A stretch of DNA of 32,000 bases, taken from NCBI GenBank assembly GCA_039809905.1, contig JBDHVY010000001.1, positions 450,001 to 482,000 of the forward strand, written 5' to 3'. The stretch is from Candidatus Babelota bacterium. GTDB lineage: Bacteria > Babelota > Babeliae > Babelales > Vermiphilaceae. The notes under the pieces were generated by a model. It ran no database searches, was not told the DNA's origin, and was given only the letters and a program-made list of their open reading frames with translations. Positions 8,762 to 29,196 of this stretch are shown piece by piece. Position numbers and translations under genes: made by a program. Numbering within the stretch: position 1 is the first letter of the stretch; each line of letters starts with the position of its first letter.

Positions 8762-10168
8762 ATGAATAAAAAATTATTGCTTCTTTGTTTTATTTTTAAT
8801 TTCAACAATTTTCTACCACTTTCTGGTATGACTCACTATTGTACTAACCATAAAGAAAAGGTTTTATCTCAACCAAGAACATATTTTAGTCGAGAAAGTG
8901 GCACAAACGGAATAACAAGCAATGGCACATTTATCTTCAGCAGGCCTTACAATTCAAAAATTGCTACCTGCTTTGCAGGAGAATTCTCTAAGGGTCTTTC
9001 GAAAAGTTTGGATAAAAATCCTCTCTCTATAATCAATCTTTCAACAAGTACTCAAGATGGCTATACGTTTAAAAACATCGATAACCGAACTCCCGTATCA
9101 TGCATTCATCTTCTCAATGATAAAACAATGGCAATAGGGCATGGTAAAAAAATCTATATTGCACAAGATAATGGTAGTAGATTGATTTATTTCATCAATA
9201 ATTTTTTCGCTTACCCACGTCAACCTCGTAAGCTTAGTAAAGTTTTAGAACTTTCTCCTCAACTTGGTGTAGAAGATAGTATTGCCACAATTGAAAGTAG
9301 TCTATCTCATCTTATTGTGATTTCAAAAAAAGGGCACATTTCAACCTGGCAAAAAGTTAATAACGTTATTCAGGAAAGCAGCTTCAAAACATTTGACCAC
9401 ACATCTCCTTTTTTTTCTTATGCGGTAAACCAAGAAAAAAATATACTGTGCATGGGTTTAGATCATGGTAAAATTTTCACTGCCAATATAGCAAATCTTA
9501 ATAAACACACTATTACGCATTCACTTGATGCAGCTCTAAAAATTAATTGTATGAATTTCCAAAATAATACGCTTTTTGCATCTGCATTATGTGATTGCCA
9601 TCAAATACTTCCCACTACAAAAAATAGTAATCGTTGTAACAACAAACATGTACTTTTATCATTTGAAGAATGTAATCAAGCTGAAAACACTTTGCCTAAG
9701 ATGACAGGAAAAGAAACGCTCCTTTCTTTTCCTGAATTATGTCCAAAAAAAGCGGTATTATTGCCAAATGGTTTATTCGTATCACACACAGCACTATGCA
9801 ACAAAAATGTTTCTGATCTTGAGGAAGATGAAATTATTAAAGAGGTAATTGCAGTACATAGCCCTGATAATATTCAAAATCTATTAACTATTGATACCAC
9901 TTGTATGAGAGCAATCGAATATCCTGTCCATCCAATAATAACAGGTAATGAAATTCATATGCTGGGTGAAATAAGAAACGATTTTTCCAATTACATGATA
10001 TATTTTCATCGAATCTATACACCAAATAAATTTGGTATTATAGCAAAATATGCATATTACACTCAATTAATGAATTATATCAACAAACGATCTTATTTTT
10101 CAGTGACAATGCATTTTCTGATTCCTGCATTACTGTTATATGCAGCAAGTCGCTATTTTTCAGATTGA
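8762..10168 (+). CDS. Hypothetical protein with N-terminal signal peptide and C-terminal transmembrane anchor
   Basis: 468-aa ORF. N-terminus MNKKLLLLCFIFNFNNFLPLSG; extreme C-terminus SVTMHFLIPALLLYAASRYFSD. No family recognised. Confidence 0.6.
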   Translation: MNKKLLLLCFIFNFNNFLPLSGMTHYCTNHKEKVLSQPRTYFSRESGTNGITSNGTFIFSRPYNSKIATCFAGEFSKGLSKSLDKNPLSIINLSTSTQDGYTFKNIDNRTPVSCIHLLNDKTMAIGHGKKIYIAQDNGSRLIYFINNFFAYPRQPRKLSKVLELSPQLGVEDSIATIESSLSHLIVISKKGHISTWQKVNNVIQESSFKTFDHTSPFFSYAVNQEKNILCMGLDHGKIFTANIANLNKHTITHSLDAALKINCMNFQNNTLFASALCDCHQILPTTKNSNRCNNKHVLLSFEECNQAENTLPKMTGKETLLSFPELCPKKAVLLPNGLFVSHTALCNKNVSDLEEDEIIKEVIAVHSPDNIQNLLTIDTTCMRAIEYPVHPIITGNEIHMLGEIRNDFSNYMIYFHRIYTPNKFGIIAKYAYYTQLMNYINKRSYFSVTMHFLIPALLLYAASRYFSD

Positions 10169-10201: not shown

Positions 10202-10234
10202 AAAGCCCCATTCTGCATATACGAATGGGGCTTT
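10202..10234. terminator. Perfect 12-bp hairpin after the 8762..10168 gene (terminator candidate)
   Basis: AAAGCCCCATTC (10202-10213) / GAATGGGGCTTT (10223-10234) with a 9-nt loop and no long T-tract. The stem contains the same CCCCAT/ATGGGG motif used by the adjacent repeat element. Confidence 0.5.
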
Positions 10235-10295: not shown

Positions 10296-10446
10296 ATTTC
10301 AAATTCTTTTATGGGGATCCTCAATAGCCCAGCTTCTATCCCCAATTTCGACGAGTCTTCATTGGGGTCCCCATATGAAGAATGAGGATGGGGTAAGAGG
10401 AATGGGTATATAAGCATTCAGCATGGGGCTAATAGAGCTATAATAC
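10296..10446 (+). repeat. Intergenic structured repeat, copy B (full length), ending 12 nt before the ddl-ddl ATG
   Basis: ATTTCAAATTCTTTT-ATGGGGATCC-TCAATAGCCCA...-CCCCAAT(10340-46)-TTCGACGAGTCTTC-ATTGGGG(10361-67)-TCCCCAT-ATGAAGAATGAGG-ATGGGG(10388-93)-...-AGCATGGGGCTA...TATAAT. Near-identical blocks recur at 19786-19960. Confidence 0.75.
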
Positions 10447-10457
10447 AAGGTTAACAT

Positions 10458-12665
10458 ATGCAAAAATTACGCATCGGTGTTCTTATGGGCGGCAAATCAC
10501 TTGAAAAAGAAGTTTCTTTCAATTCAGGCAGAACCATTTGTGATCACTTAGATACTACACGATATGTTGCAGTCCCCTTATTTCAAAAAAGTGCACACAT
10601 TTATATTTTACCATGGCACTTTTTACATCGAGGTAAAACCACTGATTTTGAACACAGACTTGCAAGTGAAGCTCAAGAAATTGCATGGGATGATTTAAAA
10701 AAACATATTGATCTTATTTATATTGCGCAACATGGCCGATATGCAGAAGATGGCTGCTTACAAGGATTTCTTGAAATACTCGATATCCCCTATATAGGAT
10801 CTGATATTTTAGCAAGTGCACTGCGTGGCGATAAACATATGCATAAAATAGTATTGCGTAATGCCGGTATTGAAGTTCCTGAATATATTGTTGTTGAGCC
10901 AGATGCAATTGATAATTTCGAAAAACATAAAGATCATATTTTTACGCAGCTAAAAACTATTGCCAGCACAGAATATATTGTAAAACCTTATAATGAAGGT
11001 TCAAGTTTAGGCATTTCTATCGCAGATAAAAATACATTAGAAGATGCATTAAAAAAAGCCTGCTACATTGAACCACATAAAAAAAAACGAGTAGTTGTCG
11101 AAGAAAAAATTATTGGCATGGAATTTACTTGTATTATTTTAACCGATCATAATACAGGTGAATTTTTTGCTTTACCACCAACAGAAAGTATTGCCGATGC
11201 TGAAGTTGGTTTTTTTGATTATGAACAAAAATATATGCCTGGACGTGGTATTAAGCGCACGCCTGCACACTGCTCACCTGAAATAACTGAGCGTATTCAA
11301 CAAACATGCATCAAAGTAATGAATGTTTTAGGATTTACCACTATGGGACGAATCGATGGATTTGTAACAAAAGATGGCAGAATAATTATTATTGATCCCA
11401 ACACACTTTCTGGCATGGCACCTTCAAGCTATATTTTTAATCAAGCAGCAGAAATTAATATGAGTCCATCACAGCTTATTAATTTTATAATTGAAGGCGA
11501 ACTTAAGCGATATAGTATGGATACTGTTAGTGATGATCAAGATACAATGGATAATTCACTCATGAATACTCATAAGACTCGCATCGCTGTTTTGCTCGGT
11601 GGTGCATCACATGAAAAAGAAACTTCCCTTGATTCAGGCCGCAATGTATTTTATAAATTATCTCCACAAAAATATGATGCCATTCCTTTATTTGTAACCA
11701 GTACACTAGAATTATATAAGCTCACACAATCACAACTTGTGCGAAATTCAACAAAAGAAATTGTCGATTTATTACAAGAATCTCAAAAAATAAAATGGTC
11801 TGATGTACCACATATAGCAGATTTTGTCTTTAATGCACTGCATGGTGGCGAAGGTGAAAATGGATCAGTACAAGGTACTTTAGAAATACTCGGATTACCC
11901 TACAATGGTTCATCCGTGCTTACCAGCGCATTATGCATGAATAAATATAAAACCAATGAATTTCTTGCAATGAATGGCTTTGATGTACCACAAAGTGTGT
12001 TCGTGAAAAAAGATGAATGGGTCAACTCTGCTAAGGTTTTCAATTATGTTGCTGAATTATCATACCCTCTTATTGTCAAACCACATGATGATGGTTGCAG
12101 CGTAATGGTGCAAAAAGTAGCCAATGATGATGAACTTATTGCATCTATCGATGCAATAATGCAAAAAAAAGATTCCGTACTTATAGAAGAATATATTACG
12201 GGAATGGAATTAACTGTTGGTGTAATTGGCAATAGTACAATACACGTACTACCGCCAAGCCAAGCAATTAGTGCTCATGCAATACTTTCGATTGAAGAAA
12301 AATTTTTGCCTGGTGCCGGCGAAAATCAAACACCAGCACCATTGCCACAAGAAACATTACGTTTTGTACAAGGTGTAATCGAAAAAGTTTATACAACAGT
12401 TGGTTGCAAGGGATACGCGCGTATTGATTGCTTCTACCAAAATGCAGCAATAAGCCCCACCGGCAAAGAACGTGTGGTAATTTTAGAAATAAATACATTG
12501 CCGGGATTAACTCCTGCAACTTGTTTATTTCATCAAGCAGCAGAAATTGGACTGAAACCAATGGAATTAATTGAAACTATCATCAATTTTGGTTTTGAAG
12601 AACATAGAGGAACAAATACCGAAAAACAAATTTCATCACAAGCTACTATTGAAATGTCTCAATAA
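10458..12665 (+). CDS. ddl: Tandem-fused D-alanine--D-alanine ligase (two complete Ddl ATP-grasp modules in one 735-aa polypeptide)
   Basis: Module 1 (about aa 1-350): RIGVLMGGKSLEKEVSFNSG, HGRYAEDGCLQGFLEILDIPYIGS, KPYNEGSSLGIS, FFDYEQKYMPG, GRIDGF, DPNTLSGM. Module 2 (about aa 375-725): RIAVLLGGASHEKETSLDSG, HGGEGENGSVQGTLEILGLPYNGS, KPHDDGCSVMV, IEEKFLPG, ARIDCF, EINTLPGL. Each aligns end to end with E. coli DdlB as remembered. Confidence 0.9.
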   Translation: MQKLRIGVLMGGKSLEKEVSFNSGRTICDHLDTTRYVAVPLFQKSAHIYILPWHFLHRGKTTDFEHRLASEAQEIAWDDLKKHIDLIYIAQHGRYAEDGCLQGFLEILDIPYIGSDILASALRGDKHMHKIVLRNAGIEVPEYIVVEPDAIDNFEKHKDHIFTQLKTIASTEYIVKPYNEGSSLGISIADKNTLEDALKKACYIEPHKKKRVVVEEKIIGMEFTCIILTDHNTGEFFALPPTESIADAEVGFFDYEQKYMPGRGIKRTPAHCSPEITERIQQTCIKVMNVLGFTTMGRIDGFVTKDGRIIIIDPNTLSGMAPSSYIFNQAAEINMSPSQLINFIIEGELKRYSMDTVSDDQDTMDNSLMNTHKTRIAVLLGGASHEKETSLDSGRNVFYKLSPQKYDAIPLFVTSTLELYKLTQSQLVRNSTKEIVDLLQESQKIKWSDVPHIADFVFNALHGGEGENGSVQGTLEILGLPYNGSSVLTSALCMNKYKTNEFLAMNGFDVPQSVFVKKDEWVNSAKVFNYVAELSYPLIVKPHDDGCSVMVQKVANDDELIASIDAIMQKKDSVLIEEYITGMELTVGVIGNSTIHVLPPSQAISAHAILSIEEKFLPGAGENQTPAPLPQETLRFVQGVIEKVYTTVGCKGYARIDCFYQNAAISPTGKERVVILEINTLPGLTPATCLFHQAAEIGLKPMELIETIINFGFEEHRGTNTEKQISSQATIEMSQ

Positions 12666-13323: not shown

Positions 13324-15861
13324 CTATTTTTTTGTATCAGAGTAGCTTCTTTTGCCAAATAAGCAACGATAATACAATAATTTAACAATCTCTGTTGCTA
13401 CAAAATAAACAGTCGTAATGGATAAGATCATAAACATAGTGTATGCCGTTGGGTGTTTAAAAAGAAATATGTTTTGACCTAACATAGTAAACGGTAACAC
13501 AATGATAATACCTGCTGCCATACTACATAAACTCAAAAGTAACATCGAGGGGCGATGAGCTTTGCAGAATGGCAAAGTGGTTCGTAATGAAAAAATAAAA
13601 ACTAACTGACCCAAAGCAGCTGCAATAAACCAACTTGTTTGCAATGTTGCTGGATCGGATTTGAAAAACATAAAAATAATAAAATCAAAAAATGAAATAA
13701 CCACACCAAAAAGAAGTACTACAAGACCTATATCTTTTAATGAATAACGCAATGGTCTTTTTAACTCTTGGTAAGTTACACTATCAGATGATATACCAAT
13801 CAATGGAAAATCAGTTATCAGATCTAAAAATAATAATTGCAAAGGCAACATAGGCAAATAATTGAGCCATAAAGAAGAAAGCGCTAAAGAATAAAAATGA
13901 CCTACATTGCAGGCAATAGTAACTTTAATATATTTTAGTGTATTGATAATTATTTTTCTTCCTTCTTCCACTCCTAACATTATATTCAATAAGCTTTTTT
14001 GTAATAATATAATTTCTGCCGCTTCTTGTGCTACACGAGCTGCATCTTTTACCGCAATACCAACTTGAGCAATTTTAAGCGCAGGCGCATCATTAATACC
14101 ATCTCCAATATATCCCACAGAATAGGTACGTTGCAAAAGCGAAATGATCTCATATTTTTGTTGAGGATTAACTCGAGCAAAAATAGTACGTCCATTCACC
14201 AGCTCTGTTTTTTCTTGTTCATTTGCTTTTTCAAAATCAGATCCAAGCACCACATTATCATGATTATTTTCTAATCCCAGTTGTTGCGCTATAAAAAAAC
14301 AGACATCTCGACTATCTCCACTCAGAATCTTAATTTGAACATCCAATGCTTGTGCCTTTTTTATTGCAGTCAAAGCCGTACTATTAAGAGGATCAACAAA
14401 TGCAATTAATCCTATTGAATCGTATTTTATATCGTCATCATTAATAAATTCTGTTTTTACCTTTTTTTCTGGGACTTCTTTTATTGCAACTGCAATAACA
14501 CGATTGCTTTTCGTTTCATTATCACTCATCCATGCTTTAAGCTTTTCCAGTTCATCTGATTGCAATGGAACACAATGTTCCACAACATATTCAAAAGAAC
14601 CCTTGGTAATAAAAAAATGAGTATTATTTTTTTGAGCAAATGTAATAGTACGATGACGCTCATAAGTGAAAGGTAATGTCTTAATCACCGTATATTGCGC
14701 AATTTCTTTCGATTGTTCGGGAGTTAATTTTTGTACAATAGCGGCATCAAAGCTATTGGATGTTATAGTAGTATCAGCAGAAAGAGCTGCAAAAATAAGA
14801 CTGTCATAATTATCGGAATTATATACGTCTTTCACTTTTAAGTTATTTTCTGTTAATGTCCCGGTTTTATCAGCACAAAAAACATTGATTCCACCCAAAT
14901 CTTCTATAGCAGATAATCTTTTTACAATTATTTTATGCTTATGGAGTGCCATAGCACCACGAGTCAAACAAAAAGTAATAACTATGGGCAATGCCGAAGG
15001 AATAGCAGTAATAGAAAGCGCTGCAGCAAAAAATAGTATATTAATAAAAGAAATATGGTCTGTTTTAATAAACAGATTAATAAAAATAATAACAGCAAGG
15101 CTTATAAGAATTAATATCAAAACAAAACGAGCAAGTTGCATACTATTTTGCGCAAGATTACTTTTAATAATGGTATGCGTAGCCAATGCAGAAATAGAAC
15201 CTAATTGTGAATGAACTCCTGTTGCAAAAACTACGCCAATTCCAGACCCATCCGTTACAACAGTACCAGCAAAAGCAGATGTCGTTGTTTTCCACAATTC
15301 TGTTATTGTTTCTTGAGGTAATTCATGCATTTTGTGGATAGGAATAGATTCACCGCTCAAACTTGCTTCATCAATCATAAGGTTATTACTATCAATAATA
15401 CGACAATCAGCAGGGACAATATCACCTGCCTTCAGCACAATAATATCCCCAGGAACAATAGTACTTACCTCAACTTTTTGATCAGTTCCATTTCGACGTA
15501 CTAAAATAGATGCTTCAAGATAAGCCTGCAACAATTCCATTGCTTTATTGCTATGATATTCTTGGTAAAAACCAATTGCAGTATTGATTATCATAATCAT
15601 GATAATAATAATAGATTCGGTGTATTGCTGTGTAAAAAAGTAAAGTATCGCAACACATACAAACATAAAAATAAAAGGATTTTTAACCTGATTGAAAAAG
15701 ATAGTCAACGCGGTTACATTCGTGCGTTGTAATCTATTAGGACCATACGTAATGAAACGCTTTTTTGCTTCTTGTTCAGTCAGCCCGCAAGACGTTGTCT
15801 GCAAATCATCAAAAACCTTTTCTACGCTCAAATTACTATAAAAAAGAAAATCTTTATTCAT
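13324..15861 (-). CDS. Cation-transporting P-type ATPase, divergent tandem paralog (TM4 motif PSALP instead of PEGLP)
   Basis: 845 aa. Motifs: Cation_ATPase_N-like GLTEQEAKKRFITYGPN, actuator LSGES, phosphorylation site CADKTGTLTEN, KGSFE, DPLN, ILSGDS, GDGINDAPALK; about 10 predicted TM helices. Confidence 0.9.
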   Translation of the reverse strand: MNKDFLFYSNLSVEKVFDDLQTTSCGLTEQEAKKRFITYGPNRLQRTNVTALTIFFNQVKNPFIFMFVCVAILYFFTQQYTESIIIIMIMIINTAIGFYQEYHSNKAMELLQAYLEASILVRRNGTDQKVEVSTIVPGDIIVLKAGDIVPADCRIIDSNNLMIDEASLSGESIPIHKMHELPQETITELWKTTTSAFAGTVVTDGSGIGVVFATGVHSQLGSISALATHTIIKSNLAQNSMQLARFVLILILISLAVIIFINLFIKTDHISFINILFFAAALSITAIPSALPIVITFCLTRGAMALHKHKIIVKRLSAIEDLGGINVFCADKTGTLTENNLKVKDVYNSDNYDSLIFAALSADTTITSNSFDAAIVQKLTPEQSKEIAQYTVIKTLPFTYERHRTITFAQKNNTHFFITKGSFEYVVEHCVPLQSDELEKLKAWMSDNETKSNRVIAVAIKEVPEKKVKTEFINDDDIKYDSIGLIAFVDPLNSTALTAIKKAQALDVQIKILSGDSRDVCFFIAQQLGLENNHDNVVLGSDFEKANEQEKTELVNGRTIFARVNPQQKYEIISLLQRTYSVGYIGDGINDAPALKIAQVGIAVKDAARVAQEAAEIILLQKSLLNIMLGVEEGRKIIINTLKYIKVTIACNVGHFYSLALSSLWLNYLPMLPLQLLFLDLITDFPLIGISSDSVTYQELKRPLRYSLKDIGLVVLLFGVVISFFDFIIFMFFKSDPATLQTSWFIAAALGQLVFIFSLRTTLPFCKAHRPSMLLLSLCSMAAGIIIVLPFTMLGQNIFLFKHPTAYTMFMILSITTVYFVATEIVKLLYYRCLFGKRSYSDTKK

Positions 15862-18394
15862 GATATTTATTCTTAAAAGAGTAGTACGTGAGTTTCACCG
15901 TTTCAGCAATTATCATGTTAAACATAATCACACCGATTAACCATGGCGCGTGTTCTAAACGCGGAGATGAGAATAAAAAGATTGTATGTCCAATAGTTGT
16001 AAAAGGTAAAATAAGAGCGGTTAAAACAACAAACAAAGAAAGCCCCATCAATAACCGTGATGGTCGATGAGCTCTGAAAAATAACATTGGCGCACGAAAC
16101 AAGAAAATAAAAATAACTTCTGAAATAGTACTAGTGATAAACCAACTTGTCTGTAATGTTTCAGGAAAATGGGATCGAAACACCAAAAAGATCGTAATAT
16201 CGGCAATAAACATAATAGTCCCAAAAAGCACAATTAAAATCGCAGCATCAGTCATATCATACGTGACCGGTTTTTGTACTTCTTGCTCACTAACATTATC
16301 GGTAGAGATAGCAATCATAGGCAAATCAGTCAGCAAATTTAAAAATAATAATTGCATAGGAAGCATTGGTGGATAATTCACTAAAAGCGAGGCTACTGCT
16401 AACGCATAAAAATGACCAAAACTAGGTGCATTAGTCATTTTCGTGTACTTCAGTGTATTAACAATAGTACGTCTTCCCTGCTCAATTCCTAAAATTACTG
16501 AACTTAAGCTTTTACGTAGCAAAATAATTTCAGCTGCTTCACGTGCAACTGAAGCAGCATCATTCACCGCAAAACTAACATGCGCCATTTTCAGTGCTGG
16601 CGCATCATTAATACCATCGCCCATGTAGCCAACAGAATATTTATCTTTTAAATGTTTAATAATTTCATATTTTTGTTCTGGATTTACTCGAGCAAAAATT
16701 GATCGGTTATGAGCTAAAAATATTTTTTCTTCTTCCGTAGCTTTTTCAAAATCAGATCCTAATACAACATTGTTAATATCTTCTTCAAGGCCAAGTTGTT
16801 GGGCAATAGTAAAGCAAACGTGTTTGCTATCGCCACTTAATATTTTTATATCAATTCCAAGCGATTTTGCTTTTTGTACCGTTGTTAATGCAGTGCTTTT
16901 GAGCGGATCTTGAAACGCAATTAAGCCAATTGTCTCATAATCATGATCGTCAGCAGTAATGTCGTAAGCTCCATTACCATAATCAGATATATTTTTAGTT
17001 GCTACTGCCAAAATACGATTTCCTTTTGATTCTTCTGTTTCAATCCATGAAGCTATAATATTTTTTTCTTCTTGATTTAAAAAAGAACATTTTTCTATAA
17101 CTACTTCCGGAGATCCTTTTATAATAAGCGTATGCACTCCTTCTTTCTGCACAAGCGCCATGCTTTGGCGTTTTTGTGGCGTAAAAGGAATATCTTTTAC
17201 CAATGTATGTTTCTTGCCATGTTCAGCATATTCCTGAGTTAATTTTTTTTGTAACGCTAACTCAAAACCTTTCGTAGCACTTTCTTTTGTTGCAGTTTGA
17301 GGCGGACAAGAAAGTACCGCATACATAATTATCTCATCAGGATTTTTAGCATAAATAGCATCGACAGTTAATGCATTTTCGGTGAGCGTTCCTGTTTTAT
17401 CAGTACAAAAAACTTCTATAGATCCCAGATCACCAATTGCAGATAACCGTTTTACGATAACATTATTTTTTTTCAGGGATGATGCACCCTGCGATAAACA
17501 AAAGGTAATAACCATCGGCAAACCTTCTGGTATTGCCGTAATGGTAAGCGCTGCAGCAAAAAGGAAGAAATCAACAAAATTAAGTTCACCACCATGCTTT
17601 ACAATGTGCACTAAAGCAGTGAGCAGTAAACTAAAAAAAATAAGATATATCGTAAATTTGGCAATAGAAACAGAACCTTTTTCAAGACTACTTTTAGTAA
17701 TCACCTGCGCCGTCAATGCTGCAAGTGTGCCAAGCGCACTTTGAGAACCAGTTGCAATAACAACACCGACACCTTTACCATGTGTTACCACGGTTCCCGT
17801 AAAACCAATATTTTCAGCTTTATACATATCGGTTATTGCTTCTTGCAATGGTTCAGCATGTTTAATAACAGCAATAGATTCACCCGTTAAACTCGATTCA
17901 TCAATGGTGAGATTATCCACTTCAATAAAACGACAATCAGCAGGAATAACATCTCCTGCTGAAAGTATTATAATATCTCCCGGCACTAATTGATTAATAT
18001 CAATATTTATTTCTGAGCTATTGCGGCGTACCGTAACTTGAGACATAAGACATTTTTTAAGAGCCTGCATTGCAGTATTGCTACGATATTCTTGGTAAAA
18101 ACCAATTCCTACATTCACTGCAATAATGACAAAAATGATGATACATTCAGCAATTTTTCCTGTGAACAAATATGCAAGACCTATCACAAAAAAAATACAC
18201 ATAAAAGGACTTAAAAGCTGGGCCTTAAGAACATCAAGCCATGTAATTTCTGTTTCTTTTATTTCATTTAAGCCATATTTCTTCAGACGATCAGCAACTT
18301 CATCCTGAGTAAGACCCTTGTGTATAGTTTTCAATTCCTTTAATGCATCTTCAATTGATAATGAGGTATATAAAGAAAAATTTTTACGTTCCAT
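15854..18394 (-). CDS. Cation-transporting P-type ATPase (P2-like, canonical PEGLP TM4 motif; Ca2+/Mg2+-type family)
   Basis: 846 aa. Motifs: GLTQDEVADRLKKYGLNE, LTGES, AIPEGLPMVITF, CTDKTGTLTEN, KGSPE, DPLK, ILSGDS, GDGINDAPALK. Its stop overlaps the downstream paralog's ATG by 8 nt (15854-15861). Confidence 0.9.
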   Translation of the reverse strand: MERKNFSLYTSLSIEDALKELKTIHKGLTQDEVADRLKKYGLNEIKETEITWLDVLKAQLLSPFMCIFFVIGLAYLFTGKIAECIIIFVIIAVNVGIGFYQEYRSNTAMQALKKCLMSQVTVRRNSSEINIDINQLVPGDIIILSAGDVIPADCRFIEVDNLTIDESSLTGESIAVIKHAEPLQEAITDMYKAENIGFTGTVVTHGKGVGVVIATGSQSALGTLAALTAQVITKSSLEKGSVSIAKFTIYLIFFSLLLTALVHIVKHGGELNFVDFFLFAAALTITAIPEGLPMVITFCLSQGASSLKKNNVIVKRLSAIGDLGSIEVFCTDKTGTLTENALTVDAIYAKNPDEIIMYAVLSCPPQTATKESATKGFELALQKKLTQEYAEHGKKHTLVKDIPFTPQKRQSMALVQKEGVHTLIIKGSPEVVIEKCSFLNQEEKNIIASWIETEESKGNRILAVATKNISDYGNGAYDITADDHDYETIGLIAFQDPLKSTALTTVQKAKSLGIDIKILSGDSKHVCFTIAQQLGLEEDINNVVLGSDFEKATEEEKIFLAHNRSIFARVNPEQKYEIIKHLKDKYSVGYMGDGINDAPALKMAHVSFAVNDAASVAREAAEIILLRKSLSSVILGIEQGRRTIVNTLKYTKMTNAPSFGHFYALAVASLLVNYPPMLPMQLLFLNLLTDLPMIAISTDNVSEQEVQKPVTYDMTDAAILIVLFGTIMFIADITIFLVFRSHFPETLQTSWFITSTISEVIFIFLFRAPMLFFRAHRPSRLLMGLSLFVVLTALILPFTTIGHTIFLFSSPRLEHAPWLIGVIMFNMIIAETVKLTYYSFKNKYHE

Positions 18395-19785: not shown

Positions 19786-19960
19786 ATTTCAAAATCTTTT
19801 ACGGGGACCTCAATAGCCCAATCTTCATTTCATTTTTATCCCCAATTTCGCCGAGTCTTCATTGGGGTCCCCGTACGAAGAATGAGGACGGGGTATAGGC
19901 ACCGATTCCGGAGGGTGGCGAAGGAATGAGTATAGAAGTATGGAGCATGGGGCTATAGTC
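19786..19960 (+). repeat. Intergenic structured repeat, copy C (full length, with extra internal GC-rich insertion), ending 4 nt before the ankyrin gene ATG
   Basis: ATTTCAAAATCTTTT-ACGGGGACC-TCAATAGCCCA...-CCCCAAT(19840-46)-TTCGCCGAGTCTTC-ATTGGGG(19861-67)-TCCCCGT-ACGAAGAATGAGG-ACGGGG(19888-93)-...-AGCATGGGGCTATAGT. Relative to copy B it carries about 21 extra nt (CACCGATTCCGGAGGGTGGCG). Confidence 0.75.
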
Positions 19961-21840: not shown

Positions 21841-22914
21841 ATGAAGCATATAAAAATAAAAATGTTTATCGCATTACTATTTCTGAGCAATGTCACCCTA
21901 GGCATGATAAGAAAAAATCCATCGCCAACTAATTATGCCCTTGAAGCAATAAAAAAGGATTCTCCCATTGAATTACATATTGCATCTATGTTTAATGCAG
22001 ATATGAGTTATAAGGATGACTATGGAAACAACTTACTATTATTAGCAATAAAAGAAGGAAAAGAGCACGCAGCTAATTATCTTTCTTCTCACCCATATTT
22101 TCAAAATAATGTAGTAATGGATGATCAAAATATTTTCGGAGAAACTGCTTTAATATGCTCATCATTACTCAATTACAAAACAACAATCTCAAATATATTA
22201 AAAATAAAAGATGTTAACCTTAACATACAAGATTATCGTCGCAAATCAGCTTTACATTGGGCTGTTTATCATTCAGACAATGATATTATTCGACTATTTA
22301 TAGAAAAGGGAGCTAATCCAACAATGCAAAACGAGCACGGAGCAACCGTTGCTTTTTATGGTGCTCTTAATAATCGCCATCTTGATCCACTAATTGCAGA
22401 AAAAATTATACTGGCAAAAGATACCTGTGGAAATACACAATTTCACTTACTTACAATGGCTAATATAAGAAAAATGACAGAAGAATCAGACACTACTCTT
22501 TGTGACTGGTTGTGTCATATTCTTAATAACTTCATAAGATATAACCTCAATTTCTTAAGTTTAAACAATTGTTGCCTGAACCCCGTAGAAACGGCATACG
22601 AGAAATATTGGAAATTATATTATAAGCACAAAACAAAAAAATCGTTTTGCTCAAAAAAACTGAATACTCAGGAAGAAATATTACATATTTTGTTACTGTG
22701 TTATTTCCAGCACAGACAAAATGATCCTTTTATTTCTTATTCTCCCTATGTACAGCAATTGAATATAGAAACAGCAATGGCACAAAAATACATCGGCAAT
22801 AAATCTTATTATCACTACTATACCATTGATACTAAAGATAAAATAAGACAAGAACTATGCGCTGATCAAACAAATATTCCAACAGTTTGGATACATCACA
22901 CTCAACAAAAATGA
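21841..22914 (+). CDS. Secreted ankyrin-repeat protein, tandem paralog 1 (C-terminally shortened)
   Basis: 357 aa. MKHIKIKMFIALLFLSNVTLG signal; ANK units (GETALICSSLLNYKTTISNIL..., SALHWAVYHSDNDIIRLFIEKGANPTMQNEHGATVAF); conserved C-terminal module EEILHILLLCYFQ...LNIETAMAQKY...IPTVWI. RBS AAGGAT-N10-ATG. Confidence 0.85.
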   Translation: MKHIKIKMFIALLFLSNVTLGMIRKNPSPTNYALEAIKKDSPIELHIASMFNADMSYKDDYGNNLLLLAIKEGKEHAANYLSSHPYFQNNVVMDDQNIFGETALICSSLLNYKTTISNILKIKDVNLNIQDYRRKSALHWAVYHSDNDIIRLFIEKGANPTMQNEHGATVAFYGALNNRHLDPLIAEKIILAKDTCGNTQFHLLTMANIRKMTEESDTTLCDWLCHILNNFIRYNLNFLSLNNCCLNPVETAYEKYWKLYYKHKTKKSFCSKKLNTQEEILHILLLCYFQHRQNDPFISYSPYVQQLNIETAMAQKYIGNKSYYHYYTIDTKDKIRQELCADQTNIPTVWIHHTQQK

Positions 22915-22922
22915 AGGATTAT

Positions 22923-24068
22923 ATGAAGCACATAAAAACAAAAATGTTTTTCACCTTATTTTTTATCGGTAATACCATCATAAGTATGGATATAATCAAG
23001 GTAGATAAAACACCATCGGTATCAACACAAAAAGCTATTGATGCAATAGAAAATGATTCACCTAAAGACTTAGCAGCAGCACTTGCAATGGGTGCAGATA
23101 TTAGTCATATAAGTAAACGTAACAATAATTTATTATTATTAGCAACAAGAAAGGGCAAAGAAAAAACGGCTCTCTATCTTGTTATTCAACCACATTTTCA
23201 AAATAATACCGTAATCAATGAACAAAATATTTTTGGCGAAACTGTTTTAATATGCGCAGCTTATCAGGGCTATAAAACATTGGTAGAAAATCTGTTAAAA
23301 ATAAAAAATATTAATCTTGATCTGCAAGATGTCCATGGCTATGATGCATTATTCACTGCGATCACACGAGAAAAAAGCGATATTACCAAATTACTTATGG
23401 AATATAATGCTAATCCAACAATTCAAAATGAACACGGAGCAACTACTGCTTTTTCTCGGAATATTCTTAGTAATTCAACAATTGATTCTTCAATAAGAAC
23501 AAAAATCATTAAAGCTAAAGATATTAATGGAAACTCTCAACTTCACCTGCTCGTAGCGGCAGATATAGGGAAAATGGCAAACACCTCAAAAAAAACCATT
23601 GATTCTTTATTTTCTAATATTCTTGAAAATTTAATAAAACATGGAACAAGTATATGGGAAATAAATAACTATAATATGCTTCCTGTAGAAACTGCATTTC
23701 AAAAATATAATGAATTACATCAACAATTCGCCTTAACAAAAAGATCTTATTTAAAAAAACGTTTAGACAATCAAGAAAAAATATTACATATTTTATTACT
23801 CTATTATTTAAAGGAAACATCAGGCAAACCAATTCTTATTTCAACACCATCACATACACACGGATTGAATATCGAAACAGTAATAGCACAAAAATACAAT
23901 CAGAATGAATGCTATTACAAAGATTATACTATTGAATATAAAGATAAACTAAAACAGCAACTCTGGGCTCATCAGATAAACATCCCCCCTGTTTGGATAT
24001 CACATGTTTACATTGCACCTACAATAATAGATGAATATGGTGATACCAATTATAATTCCTTGAAATAA
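22923..24068 (+). CDS. Secreted ankyrin-repeat protein, tandem paralog 2
   Basis: The paralog-conserved start MKHIKTKMFFTLFFIGNTIIS is at 22923; the ORF-track start 22887 lies inside paralog 1. ANK units (GETVLICAAYQGYKTLVENLL, DALFTAITREKSDITKLLMEYNANPTIQNEHGATTAF) and C-terminal module EKILHILLLYYLK...LNIETVIAQKY...IPPVWIS...EYGDTNYNSLK. Confidence 0.8.
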   Translation: MKHIKTKMFFTLFFIGNTIISMDIIKVDKTPSVSTQKAIDAIENDSPKDLAAALAMGADISHISKRNNNLLLLATRKGKEKTALYLVIQPHFQNNTVINEQNIFGETVLICAAYQGYKTLVENLLKIKNINLDLQDVHGYDALFTAITREKSDITKLLMEYNANPTIQNEHGATTAFSRNILSNSTIDSSIRTKIIKAKDINGNSQLHLLVAADIGKMANTSKKTIDSLFSNILENLIKHGTSIWEINNYNMLPVETAFQKYNELHQQFALTKRSYLKKRLDNQEKILHILLLYYLKETSGKPILISTPSHTHGLNIETVIAQKYNQNECYYKDYTIEYKDKLKQQLWAHQINIPPVWISHVYIAPTIIDEYGDTNYNSLK

Positions 24069-24139
24069 CAAAAGCTTGCGTACATTATGATTAAAAAAAA
24101 TAATTGCAGTATTCATTTTATAGAAAGGATGAATATCAC

Positions 24140-25291
24140 ATGAAGCACATAAAAACAAAATTATTTTTTTTATTACTTTTTATCAGCAACGTCATCAGCA
24201 GCATGGATATATTGCAAGCAAAAAAGAAATCATCTCCAGCAACAAAAGCTGCTCTTAATGCTATAACAAATGATTCAGTTAACTCCTTGAAAGCTGCACT
24301 TTCACAAGGCGCAGATATCAGCTGTGTAACTAAAAATGGAAATACTTTACTATTATCAGCTACCCAAAGACAAAAAAAGAAAACCTCTCTGTATCTTTCT
24401 ATTCAGCCATATTTTCAGAATGACCTCATAATCAATCACCAAAACTTTGCAGGAAAAACAGTTTTAATGGAAGCAGCCTTTCATGGATATAAAAAGATAG
24501 TAAAAAAGATATTAAAAATAAAAAACATTGGCCTCGACCTACAAGATATGAATGGAGATTTTGCTCTGCATTTTGCTGTCCGTAAGGGGCATAATGATAT
24601 TACTCGATTACTGGTAGAACATGGAGCTAACCCAACAATTCAAGACAATAACGGAATAACCATTGCTTTTTATAAAAATGTGCTTGATAACCACAACCTT
24701 GATTCAGCTATAATAAAAAAAATTATATATGCACGAGATGCTCATGAAAATACTCAACTTCACTTGCTTGCAACAGCAGATATAGAAAGCATGATAAAAA
24801 CCAACAACCAATCTATTTCAGCAAATGATTTATTTTTCATGATTGTTGAAAACTTGATACAACACGGCGTAAGCATATGGAGCATGAACGATAATAATAT
24901 GCTCGCCGTAGAAACTGCATATGAGAGATATTGTGCATTGCATCAACAGTATACAAAAAACCCAAGAATTTATTTGATGAACACCTTAAACAGTCAAGAA
25001 AAAATATTACATTTGCTGCTGCTCTATTATTTAAAGCAAACACAAAACAAACCCATTTCAATGTTACCATCACCTTATACATGCGGATTAAATATCGAAA
25101 CGGTAATGGCACAAAAACATGCAAATAATGAAAACTATTATCAAAACTATAGTATTGATACTAAAAATAAGTTAAAAAGAAAATTATGGATAAATCAGAC
25201 ACAGATCCCAATAGTTTGGGTATCACCAGCTTATGCTGGCCCCTCAATAATAAATGAATATGGCGACACCAACTATAATTCCTTGAAATAA
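24140..25291 (+). CDS. Secreted ankyrin-repeat protein, tandem paralog 3
   Basis: Conserved start MKHIKTKLFFLLLFISNVISS at 24140, preceded by AAGGAT-N10. The ORF-track start 24104 is a TTG in the spacer. ANK units (GKTVLMEAAFHGYKKIVKKIL, FALHFAVRKGHNDITRLLVEHGANPTIQDNNGITIAF). The C-terminus ends in the same EYGDTNYNSLK as paralog 2. Confidence 0.8.
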   Translation: MKHIKTKLFFLLLFISNVISSMDILQAKKKSSPATKAALNAITNDSVNSLKAALSQGADISCVTKNGNTLLLSATQRQKKKTSLYLSIQPYFQNDLIINHQNFAGKTVLMEAAFHGYKKIVKKILKIKNIGLDLQDMNGDFALHFAVRKGHNDITRLLVEHGANPTIQDNNGITIAFYKNVLDNHNLDSAIIKKIIYARDAHENTQLHLLATADIESMIKTNNQSISANDLFFMIVENLIQHGVSIWSMNDNNMLAVETAYERYCALHQQYTKNPRIYLMNTLNSQEKILHLLLLYYLKQTQNKPISMLPSPYTCGLNIETVMAQKHANNENYYQNYSIDTKNKLKRKLWINQTQIPIVWVSPAYAGPSIINEYGDTNYNSLK

Positions 25292-27986: not shown

Positions 27987-28004
27987 GATATATTATGCGA
28001 ATTC

Positions 28005-28037
28005 ATACCCCATACTCATTCTTCGCATGGGAACCCC
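28005..28037 (-). repeat. Partial copy D of the structured repeat, inverted orientation, between tal and the GT4 gene
   Basis: The reverse complement GGGGTTCCCATGCGAAGAATGAGTATGGGGTAT matches GGGGTCCCCATATGAAGAATGAGGATGGGGTAA of copy B, i.e. the CCCAT/ATGGG hairpin with the conserved GAAGAATGAG loop. Confidence 0.55.
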
Positions 28038-28071
28038 GGCTAAGAGCAGCTAAGCTGAGAATAGGATAAAC

Positions 28072-29196
28072 ATGCGAATTTTCTTTGTAACCAATAATTA
28101 TACTCCTTATGCAGGTGGCGTTGTACAATCAATTACTGCAATTACACAAGCACTTCAAGCCGAAGGACATGATGTTTTTATTATTACGCTTACTTTTTTA
28201 AAAACACATAATGATCCAGCTTACGTTATCAGAATACCGTGCCCCATAAGATTTATGTTTAAAAAGAATTATATGGCAATTCCATGGAGACCAACTCATG
28301 CCATTATGGATCTTATCGAAAAATATAAACCAGATATTATACATATTCATCATCCTTTTTTATTAGGAACTAGTGCACTTCGTGCTGCAAAAAAATATAA
28401 TATTAAGTGCATTTTTACGTATCACACTCTTTACGAACATTATGTACATTATGTACCGCTACCAAAAATCATCATTCAACCGCTTATGCATCGATCCATA
28501 CAAATATTTTGTAATCAAGTTGATGCTATTATTGCACCAAGTACAAGTATTAAAAATTACCTGTTATTACAAAACATCACAACACCTATAACGGTGATTC
28601 CAAGCCCTTTGCGCAACATTTTTACCTACAATACACACAATGTTTTAAAAAAAAACAATGATCAGTATTTTGAATTACTACTTGTTACTCGTTGTACACC
28701 GGAAAAAAACATTCCTTTTGTTTTTAATGTTTTACAATTACTACCGCTGCATTTCAGGCTCACCATTGTCGGCTATGGCTCTGAGTATGAAAGATTACAA
28801 ACACTAGCTTTTGATACATTATGCATAAGCAAAGAACGCATACAATTTATTCACAAACCATCAGAAACTGATTTGCTCAGCATATATCGAGTATCGCATC
28901 TTTTTATTTTTCCTTCGCAAACAGATACGCAAGCAATCGTTCTTGCAGAAAGTATGTCACAAGGAATACCTGTTATAGCATTAGATGGGCCAGGACAGCG
29001 AGATATTATTATTAATAGAGTAAATGGTTTTATTACTACTAATGCAAAAGAAACAGCTGAGATCATTTTAAAGATCTCAGCTGATAAAAAATTCTATGAT
29101 TATCTTGTTTCAGGAGCTCAAGCAACTGCGCATAATTATCATTCATCAATAATCATACAAAAACTGCTCATGCTCTATAATACAATTAAAATATGA
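28072..29196 (+). CDS. Glycosyltransferase family 4 (GT-B fold, group 1)
   Basis: 374 aa. N-terminus MRIFFVTNNYTPYAGGVVQSI typical of GT4. C-terminal donor-binding region FIFPSQTDTQAIVLAESMSQGIPVIALDGPGQRDII..RVNGF. RBS AGGA-N6-ATG. Confidence 0.85.
   Translation: MRIFFVTNNYTPYAGGVVQSITAITQALQAEGHDVFIITLTFLKTHNDPAYVIRIPCPIRFMFKKNYMAIPWRPTHAIMDLIEKYKPDIIHIHHPFLLGTSALRAAKKYNIKCIFTYHTLYEHYVHYVPLPKIIIQPLMHRSIQIFCNQVDAIIAPSTSIKNYLLLQNITTPITVIPSPLRNIFTYNTHNVLKKNNDQYFELLLVTRCTPEKNIPFVFNVLQLLPLHFRLTIVGYGSEYERLQTLAFDTLCISKERIQFIHKPSETDLLSIYRVSHLFIFPSQTDTQAIVLAESMSQGIPVIALDGPGQRDIIINRVNGFITTNAKETAEIILKISADKKFYDYLVSGAQATAHNYHSSIIIQKLLMLYNTIKI

Follow-up and report, generated by a model that had tools for sequence, protein, structure and literature searches.

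Bacterial MITEs, or miniature inverted-repeat transposable elements, such as the Correia/NEMIS elements of Neisseria, ERIC, RUP and the QMITE of Coxiella, are small, non-coding, dispersed and multi-copy. They have inverted-repeat ends and hairpins, lie mostly between genes near gene starts, show presence/absence polymorphism and flanking direct duplications, are occasionally inserted in frame in open reading frames (ORFs), and possibly affect expression when co-transcribed (PMC10969869). The Rickettsia palindromic elements (RPEs) are palindromic repeats of an obligate intracellular host with a reduced genome, with both intergenic and in-frame, peptide-adding copies (PMC10969869). Dependentiae are not mentioned in that review (0 occurrences). 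As described here, a short repeat with several of these properties is present in a 32,000-nucleotide stretch of Candidatus Babelota DNA (assembly GCA_039809905.1, contig JBDHVY010000001.1, positions 450,001 to 482,000), which was analysed over its full length and is called the window below.

Dependentiae are obligate intracellular bacteria that are known mainly from metagenomes. The repeat of the window is formed by two adjacent GC-rich hairpins, and it is probably a non-autonomous mobile element of Candidatus Babeliales, MITE-like and RPE-like in character. It appears to represent an undescribed family of this kind in Dependentiae. A literature search on repeats in Dependentiae found no description of a two-hairpin element, and a search of the window against Rfam 15 gave nothing at the gathering score, with chance-level matches only around two of the copies (A and B). 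A sequence-only reading of the window had recognised three copies, A, B and C, and had proposed that coordinated substitutions between B and C preserve two mutually exclusive helices, which is the logic of attenuators and riboswitch expression platforms. It overlooked a minus-strand copy, D, the near-palindromic nature of the core, and how easily an element of this build forms alternative pairings.

The repeat family and its insertion sites

The minimal unit is about 68 nt long and consists of hairpin H1 followed by hairpin H2. The loop of H1, CCCCAAT(T)-loop-(A)ATTGGGG, is rich in pyrimidines, and that of H2, CCCCRT-loop-AYGGGG, is rich in purines and about 13 nt long. When CCCCAT-like blocks are called P and ATGGGG-like blocks P', the block order of the core is P1-loop-P'1, T, P2-loop-P'3, and the central ATTGGGGTCCCCAT is invariant across the family. 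A, B and C are among the long forms of 120-180 nt, in which 5' and 3' modules built from the same CCCC/GGGG blocks are added. Using a covariance model (R1) built from the two-hairpin core, we scanned the window and the corresponding loci of relatives. The window holds four copies, with A, B and C on the plus strand and D on the minus strand:

3827 to 3855, plus strand: promoter-like CTTACA-17-TATACT (or TTACAA-17-TATACT) of priA, conserved in four relatives, 6 nt before the ATG
3857 to 3864: left 8-bp direct repeat AATACATG of copy A, a putative target-site duplication that includes the ancestral priA ATG (3862)
3865 to 3986, plus strand: copy A, long form, R1 match 57.3 bits, between the duplicated target copies
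3895 to 3907, 3913 to 3939 and 3941 to 3968, plus strand: parts of copy A (ACGGGG-T-CCCCAT, H1 and H2)
3987 to 3994: right 8-bp direct repeat AATACATG of copy A, which gives the present priA start codon (3992)
10296 to 10431, plus strand: copy B, long form, R1 match 61.5 bits
10311 to 10317, 10340 to 10367 and 10369 to 10393: parts of copy B (ATGGGGA of the 5' module, H1 and H2)
10421 to 10431: GCATGGGGCTA, in which the 3' module of copy B terminates
19786 to 19955, plus strand: copy C, long form, R1 match 61.2 bits
19801 to 19807, 19840 to 19867 and 19869 to 19893: parts of copy C (ACGGGGA of the 5' module, H1 and H2)
19945 to 19955: GCATGGGGCTA, in which the 3' module of copy C terminates
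27995 to 28003: left 9-bp direct repeat ATGCGAATT of copy D
28004 to 28071, minus strand: copy D in its 68-nt short form, antisense to the plus-strand genes on either side
28072 to 28080: right 9-bp direct repeat ATGCGAATT of copy D, comprising the start codon and first codons of a glycosyltransferase gene

The R1 match to copy D spans 28003-28071 (22.5 bits, E = 2e-4) and occurs on the minus strand only. In this copy H2 is intact (TCCCATGCGAAGAATGAGTATGGGG), H1 is decayed, and 10 of 13 positions agree when the two ends, TATCCTATTCTCA and TACCCCATACTCA, are compared in inverted orientation. The other copies with an R1 match also score on the reverse strand, at 30-50 bits, which shows that the core is almost identical to its reverse complement. 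Between H2 and the 3' module, copy C has a private insert (~24 nt, ~19896-19920, GGCACCGATTCCGGAGGGTGGCG), which carries its own small inverted repeat and is absent from B.

The family is not confined to the window. More than 45 R1 matches were found in low-GC Babeliales genomes and metagenomes. Scanning with the exact pattern CCCCAATTTC-N(8-14)-ATTGGGGTCC identified 13 low-GC loci in metagenome-assembled genomes (MAGs) labelled Candidatus Babeliales or "uncultured bacterium", where each species was represented by one genome, and about 20 further loci in Joint Genome Institute (JGI) metagenomes; pattern matches in GC-rich Rugamonas proved to be an unrelated terminator-like hairpin and were set aside. 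The source genome has four copies in about 41 kb, and the sampled DNA about one per 8-18 kb. The ends of the minimal unit are inverted-repeat-like, (T)TTAT-CCCCAAT.. and ..ATGGGG-TAAA, with family end sequences of the form TTTATCCCCAAT.. and ..ATGGGGTAAA. The consensus TTTATTCCCCAATTTC is similar to the reverse complement of the 3' end, TTTACCCCATCTTC, over a short and gapped stretch, and the long-form ends of A, B and C have no clear inverted repeats.

The mobility of the repeat is seen in four relatives (L063, L064, L065 and L066) which are syntenic with the window and whose Ddl-Ddl proteins are about 80% identical. At the orthologous positions of A, B, C and D, R1 found nothing in these relatives, which have weaker, intergenic copies elsewhere. 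For example, the element is missing ahead of priA (copy A site) and upstream of ddl-ddl (copy B site) in all four; L063, L065 and L066 have the orthologous ankyrin gene without an upstream element (copy C site); and copy D is absent from L064 and L066, in which the two flanking genes are 7 and 28 nt apart. At priA, the relatives read ..TTTTTGTATA(C/G/T)TGATACT|ATGTTTATCAGAGTC with no insert, an empty junction of the form ..GTATACTGATACT|ATGTTTATCAGAGTC, and the window reads ..GTATACTG (AATACATG) AGAATCAC..element A..GGTGTTAT (AATACATG) TTTATCAGAGTC, with the repeated octamer in parentheses. Copy A is thus a 130-nt insertion with an 8-bp direct duplication. In the same way, the spacer between the transaldolase-like and glycosyltransferase genes reads TAA-GATATATT (ATGCGAATT) C..element D..AAAC (ATGCGAATT) TTCTTTG, and copy D is a 77-nt insertion with a 9-bp duplication. 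Both duplications sit exactly at the junctions set by the empty sites of the relatives, and both contain the start codon of the downstream gene. For copy C, the candidate pair TCGTTTATG / TCGATTATG was rejected, since L065 natively has the sequence that comes after the left member of the pair.

The distribution of copies between close relatives is sporadic, and L065 (1867-1929) shows how they decay, through changes from G to A and from C to T. One hot spot of insertion is the spacer that separates the T2SSF gene from the gene after it, where three relatives carry different copies or variants and the window and L066 are empty. The repeat also enters coding sequences. In L009, a 936-aa ORF contains an element in frame, the translation of which is SPISTPFQLGSPLKSNGNGV (peptide pattern SPISTPFQ.GSP....GV); among about 80 full-length orthologues, only this protein and P0008 (L067, 74.2 bits) contain it, and the remaining orthologues, about 75, have a native segment of 13-14 residues in its place. 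A TPR protein of L035 contains a copy of 63 nt that is antisense and in frame. The native 13-codon segment (L068, ~3119-3160) was observed to hold TCAATTGG and GATGGCGTT, which resemble CAATTGGGG and GATGGGGTT of the element; this resemblance could be chance, an old remnant or the result of homology-guided conversion. In size, copy number, polymorphism and duplication, the repeat agrees with MITEs.

A second, different repeat was noticed in the collected loci. Its core, CTGAACTTGTTGAAG, often lies inside GCGCTC..CCTGAACTTGTTGAAGG and occurs 13 times in 9 Babeliales loci, frequently as inverted pairs about 40 nt apart that sometimes wrap the two-hairpin element; it is absent from the window. 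The places mentioned above are as follows:

L063 1455-1600, L064 1205-1368 and L065 1840-2050: occupied T2SSF spacer
Window 1560-1690 and L066 2430-2555: empty T2SSF spacer
L009 5660-5740 and L067 3129-3196: in-ORF element, compared with L068
L004 1847-1902, L009 6438-6493, L017 6733-6788, L053 886-958, L015 7873, L023 7128, L029 875, L046 2768 and L056 4762: second repeat, core CTGAACTTGTTGAAG

Pairing in the hairpins and the long form

The observation from which the sequence-only reading started was accurate. Copy B reads ATGGGGA (10311-17), TCCCCAT (10368-74) and ATGGGG (10388-93), copy C reads ACGGGGA (19801-07), TCCCCGT (19868-74) and ACGGGG (19888-93), and the two differ at three mutually complementary positions. 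Copy A has ACGGGG (3895-3900), CCTCGT (3941-46) and ATGGGG (3963-68), whose pairing needs G.T wobbles. When B and C were aligned globally, about 136 element positions could be compared; 12 of these carry substitutions, 3 of which are the complementary ones, and there are three indels besides. We estimate the chance that both partner sites switch to the complementary base at about 1 in 1000, so the B/C pattern is real and non-random. In addition, the CCCCAAT..ATTGGGG hairpin occurs three times in the window and in 0 of 100 shuffles, and the 13-nt loop A.GAAGAATGAGG is identical between B and C except at the dot position.

What this pattern means became clearer with more copies. The claim of two exclusive helices was supported for the downstream helix, H2, which shows covariation, and not for the upstream one. 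At the key pair of H2, 35 family copies have A-T in 20 cases, G.T in 8, G-C in 4, A.C in 1 and A.A in 2, the last two classes being degenerate copies. H2 is genuinely conserved and has evolved via a G.T intermediate such as that of copy A. Full counts for each pair were made with 27 distinct copies, in which H2 is paired at 6-7 positions and H1 at 7. Here the key A/G:T/C position (pair 5) is A-T in 17, G.T in 8 and G-C in 2; pair 6 is T-A in 23 and G-C in 2; and pair 7 is C-G in 9, G-C in 3, T-A in 2 and T.G in 5, although copies from the same genome are non-independent and these counts overstate the number of events. Compensatory swaps at two H1 positions are found in copy L056b. The wobble argument of the sequence-only reading, that G-U pairs favour an RNA-level structure, is likewise borne out in part. 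G.T and T.G together fill 18 H2 cells and A.C and C.A together 3, and this excess indicates that the pairing constraint acts on the element's own strand, as a single-stranded nucleic acid; folding as RNA is the plausible form of this constraint.

Other folds of the core were considered. The competing P1/P'3 and P'1/P2 pairings, which would form one long hairpin, break off after 5 bp, since almost every copy has A.A or T.T at pair 6. Kissing loops are not favoured either, since the complementarity of the H1 and H2 loops is the generic one between pyrimidine-rich and purine-rich sequence: the loop-loop duplex energy is -6.0 kcal/mol within a copy and -6.1 kcal/mol between copies (permutation p = 0.60). 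From the generic loop complementarity and the break at pair 6, the conserved fold is taken to be two side-by-side hairpins. The minimum-free-energy structure given by RNAfold is the long hairpin for B and the upstream pairing for C. A hammerhead-like core, suggested by GAAA and CUGANGA in some H2 loops, was dismissed on inspection, as its motifs stand in the wrong order and at the wrong spacing and vary across copies. No tRNA or tmRNA was detected in the window.

The upstream helix behaves differently. A GGGG within 70 nt upstream is found only in A, B, C, L029, L024 and L056b, that is, in about 6 of 35 copies. When seven long-form copies were aligned, 81.6% of the cells of the upstream helix were paired compared with 97.6% of those of H2. 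Its key pair is C-G in four, U-A in one, U.G in one and C.A in one, whereas the H2 key pair has no broken cell. The sequence-only reading had held that the three positions change together and had named a larger alignment as the check; in the larger set of copies they are not always locked, reading T/G/C in L029, C/G/T in A and C/A/T in L024, where a C.A mismatch results. Particularly, L029, L038 and L052 have identical cores with H2 = CCCCGT/ACGGGG, and their upstream segments are ATGGGG in L029, ACGAGG with a broken GGGG in L038, and none in L052. RNAalifold, which had also been suggested as a check, returned H1 and H2 only for the long forms.

The origin of the upstream segment bears on this. 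The segment TCTTTTAYGGGGA(T)CCTCAAT matches the reverse complement of the element centre, TCTTCATTGGGGTCCCCRTAYGAAGA, in 20 of 26-27 columns, a score reached by 0 of 2000 shuffles, and the direct orientation matches less well. On this comparison, the long form carries an inverted partial duplicate of its own centre, and the complementarity of the 5' module to P2 is inherited with the copy. The coordinated changes can arise through selection on pairing or through inverted-repeat conversion, and neither route needs a switch. Alternative pairings come cheaply in an element that is made of repeated CCCCAT-like and ATGGGG-like blocks.

Genomic context and alternative explanations

Copies A, B and C are sense-oriented and lie 19-67 nt upstream of start codons, and the genes downstream of them, priA, ddl-ddl and an ankyrin gene, are functionally unrelated. 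Elsewhere in the family, L043 has copies running antisense to tRNA-Ser and tRNA-Arg, L048 has a tRNA-Met gene between two oppositely oriented copies, one copy in L034 is upstream of tRNA-Met, and one copy lies between convergent ORFs according to simple ORF calls. In L034 (1975-2042) and L048 (892-960), where the flanks are orthologous, the element precedes tRNA-Met by about 35 nt; its loops differ between the two organisms, its stems are kept, and H2 pair 7 is C-G in one and G-C in the other. This difference reflects either compensatory evolution in situ or independent insertions at a hot spot.

The priA locus illustrates how an insertion may act locally. In the four relatives, the position of the promoter-like motif 6 nt before the ATG suggests a leaderless mRNA, and priA is probably leaderless there. 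The window has the motif, the duplicated ATG (3862), a 32-codon upstream ORF running through element A, and then priA (3992); as element A now parts the motif from priA, it would be transcribed as a leader. Likewise, A, B and C now separate priA, ddl-ddl and the ankyrin gene, at their start codons, from the likely promoters. The AAGG of ddl, which resembles a Shine-Dalgarno sequence and is kept in relatives, lies 3' of element B and outside it. Consensus scans for promoters and terminators of the window gave 79 sites, the priA motif among them, compared with 79.6 in shuffles, with no terminator in the elements, and the TATAAT strings at the 3' end of A were rejected as an element-borne promoter for want of a convincing -35 box. 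The copies may alter expression locally, as insertions rather than as evolved switches.

We propose that the repeat is moved in trans by a transposase making 8-9-bp staggered cuts, as the duplications suggest, and that it would land in AT-rich spacers, often on or beside start codons and occasionally in frame inside genes. H1 and H2 would fold on a single strand, most plausibly RNA upon co-transcription, and selection or concerted evolution would keep them paired; the passage of the H2 pair from A-T through G.T to G-C is attributed to this upkeep. The third coordinated change lies in the 5' module of the long form and is on this account complementary by descent, and the alternative helix would be a by-product of the modular palindromic build rather than an expression platform.

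Several results weigh against this account of a mobile element. The terminal inverted repeats are short and imperfect, and a target-site duplication is not recognisable for B, C or the in-ORF copy. The in-ORF case is not a clean insertion, 13 codons being replaced by 22. No transposase domain was present in the ORFs adjoining the copies examined, and no inverted end pairs around an ORF were found in 315 kb of loci. A classical MITE that moves by double-strand cut-and-paste does not need a strand-specific excess of G.T, and the folding energies are unexceptional compared with shuffles (z -0.4 to -1.8), so that exceptional thermodynamic stability was also discarded as an explanation. The invariance of H1 is partly by construction, because the family copies were gathered with an exact H1 pattern. 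Furthermore, the core is near-identical between genomes whose proteins are only 60-80% identical, the in-ORF copies of L009 and L067 still score 74-80 bits while their host proteins are only 73% identical, and copies inside ORFs or beside tRNA genes have not lost their stems since they inserted. The near-identical core and the kept stems are hints that the repeat does more than spread selfishly and has some function at the level of the host or of the element.

These points give room to other explanations. If the repeat were a cis-regulatory 5'-untranslated-region RNA, in which the C-rich segment toggles between its G-rich partners as a riboswitch platform or attenuator, the sense orientation of A, B and C ahead of start codons would be accounted for, as would the single-strand signature of the G-U wobbles, the upstream pairing in the minimum-free-energy fold of C, and the fact that both helices are possible in the seven long-form copies, with a standard upstream key pair in six of them. 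However, about 29 of 35 copies have no upstream partner, and in L038 and L052 it is decayed or missing despite cores identical to that of L029; the downstream genes are unrelated and their orthologues in the four relatives are without the element; D is antisense, and other copies lie beside tRNA genes or inside ORFs. The absence of a U-tract terminator, which the sequence-only reading had already remarked, the position of the ddl AAGG outside B, the lack of an Rfam match and the omission of the upstream helix by RNAalifold point in the same direction. With a mobile element tied to no fixed gene, whose upstream partner is mostly absent, we consider switch logic very unlikely. A single-stranded DNA element of the type of repetitive extragenic palindromes (REPs) and their paired forms (REPINs), or one derived from IS200/IS605 (PATE-like), moved by a Y1 HUH transposase (REP-associated tyrosine transposase, RAYT, or TnpA), agrees with the strand-specific asymmetry of G.T over A.C, with the adjoining of two similar hairpins on the same strand, a hairpin plus an inverted near-copy as in REP doublets, and with the persistence of the same hairpin sequence across divergent genomes. 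Y1 transposases are not known to leave a target-site duplication, whereas A and D are flanked by duplications of 8 and 9 bp; a conserved GTAG-type 5' tetranucleotide is lacking, and no Y1 transposase was seen near the copies in the neighbouring ORFs examined, RAYT not having been searched genome-wide. This origin is accordingly improbable in our judgement.

The kept stems could instead mean that selection maintains a structured element with a function for the host, such as mRNA-stabilising or processing hairpins, a terminator-like element or a protein-binding site, which was spread by recombination or old transposition. The invariant central sequence agrees with this, as do the in-ORF copies that remain intact in diverged proteins and the compensatory C-G to G-C change at pair 7 between the apparently orthologous tRNA-Met-adjacent copies of L034 and L048. 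On the other hand, copies are sporadic among close relatives and decay, as in L065, they occur in both orientations, and they have no U-tract. As the main explanation, host function has little probability; it is compatible with a mobile origin and may form a secondary layer. It is also conceivable, though unlikely, that the repeat is kept across Babeliales as a strand-specific module by a partner that is itself conserved, such as a REPIN-RAYT-type domesticated transposase or an RNA-binding or processing factor. Compensatory changes would then preserve the stems of inserted copies, those in ORFs and beside tRNA genes included, and the inverted module of the long form would give a true two-state fold that tunes the genes downstream of an insertion.

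Some other features of the window were noted. A region of about 540 nt after priA (5960-6500) has no convincing gene and no Rfam match; some of its stretches are richer in GC, and two hairpins, CCCCAACttagaccGTTGGGG and CACAAAAAttatatTTTTTGTG, lie in it. A comparable gap (~600 nt) is found in L064 and not in the other relatives. A 468-aa ORF (8762-10168) with no Pfam match lies between a glycosyltransferase gene and ddl-ddl only in the source genome, the four relatives having other genes or nothing at its place; element B is on its 3' side, after a separate hairpin GCCCCATTC..GAATGGGGC (10207-10233). The tandem Ddl-Ddl fusion itself (735 aa, 10458-12665) is conserved across Babeliales, with more than 1300 homologues. 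In addition, the window has two tandem P-type ATPase paralogues (13324-18394) and three tandem ankyrin-repeat paralogues (21841-25291).

Comparison with described repeats and switches

The present results provide clean examples of an empty site together with a target duplication in Dependentiae, and the covariance model and coordinates can be used for repeat annotation, for avoiding spurious ORF and non-coding RNA calls in Babeliales MAGs, and for strain typing. They also show that modular palindromic repeats give compensatory-looking changes and exclusive helices for free, and that two copies cannot establish a riboswitch. Insertions duplicate start codons and, in the case of priA, a probably leaderless gene gains a structured leader of 130 nt together with a short upstream ORF; where the insertion is in frame, a conserved protein is lengthened by about 20 residues.

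Compared with riboswitches and attenuators, the long form shares a C-rich strand with two alternative G-rich partners. The features that define those switches are absent from the Babeliales element, which has no conserved aptamer, terminator, Shine-Dalgarno sequestration, fixed gene or fixed orientation. With REPs, bacterial interspersed mosaic elements (BIMEs) and the REPIN-RAYT system it has in common an extragenic palindrome with an inverted near-copy, a modular mosaic build and a hairpin that persists for long in a lineage. Unlike them, it has 8-9-bp duplications and in-ORF copies and no GTAG motif, and the lack of duplication that is characteristic of REP-RAYT is not found here.

The closest resemblance is to MITEs and RPEs. 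Compared with MITEs, the sequence of the Babeliales element is unrelated to the families that could be compared, its minimal unit of 68 nt is unusually short, it forms two side-by-side hairpins and not one long hairpin, and no parent insertion sequence is known. Its duplication is 8-9 bp, and those of Correia and RUP are TA. Compared with RPEs, it differs in phylum, in sequence and in size (~68 nt, against ~100-150 bp), it has target-site duplications, and only 2-3 of about 45 copies lie in ORFs, whereas nearly half of RPEs do so. The likeness to RPEs is best regarded as one of analogy and not of membership, and the comparison raises the question of whether reduced intracellular genomes repeatedly tolerate such elements.

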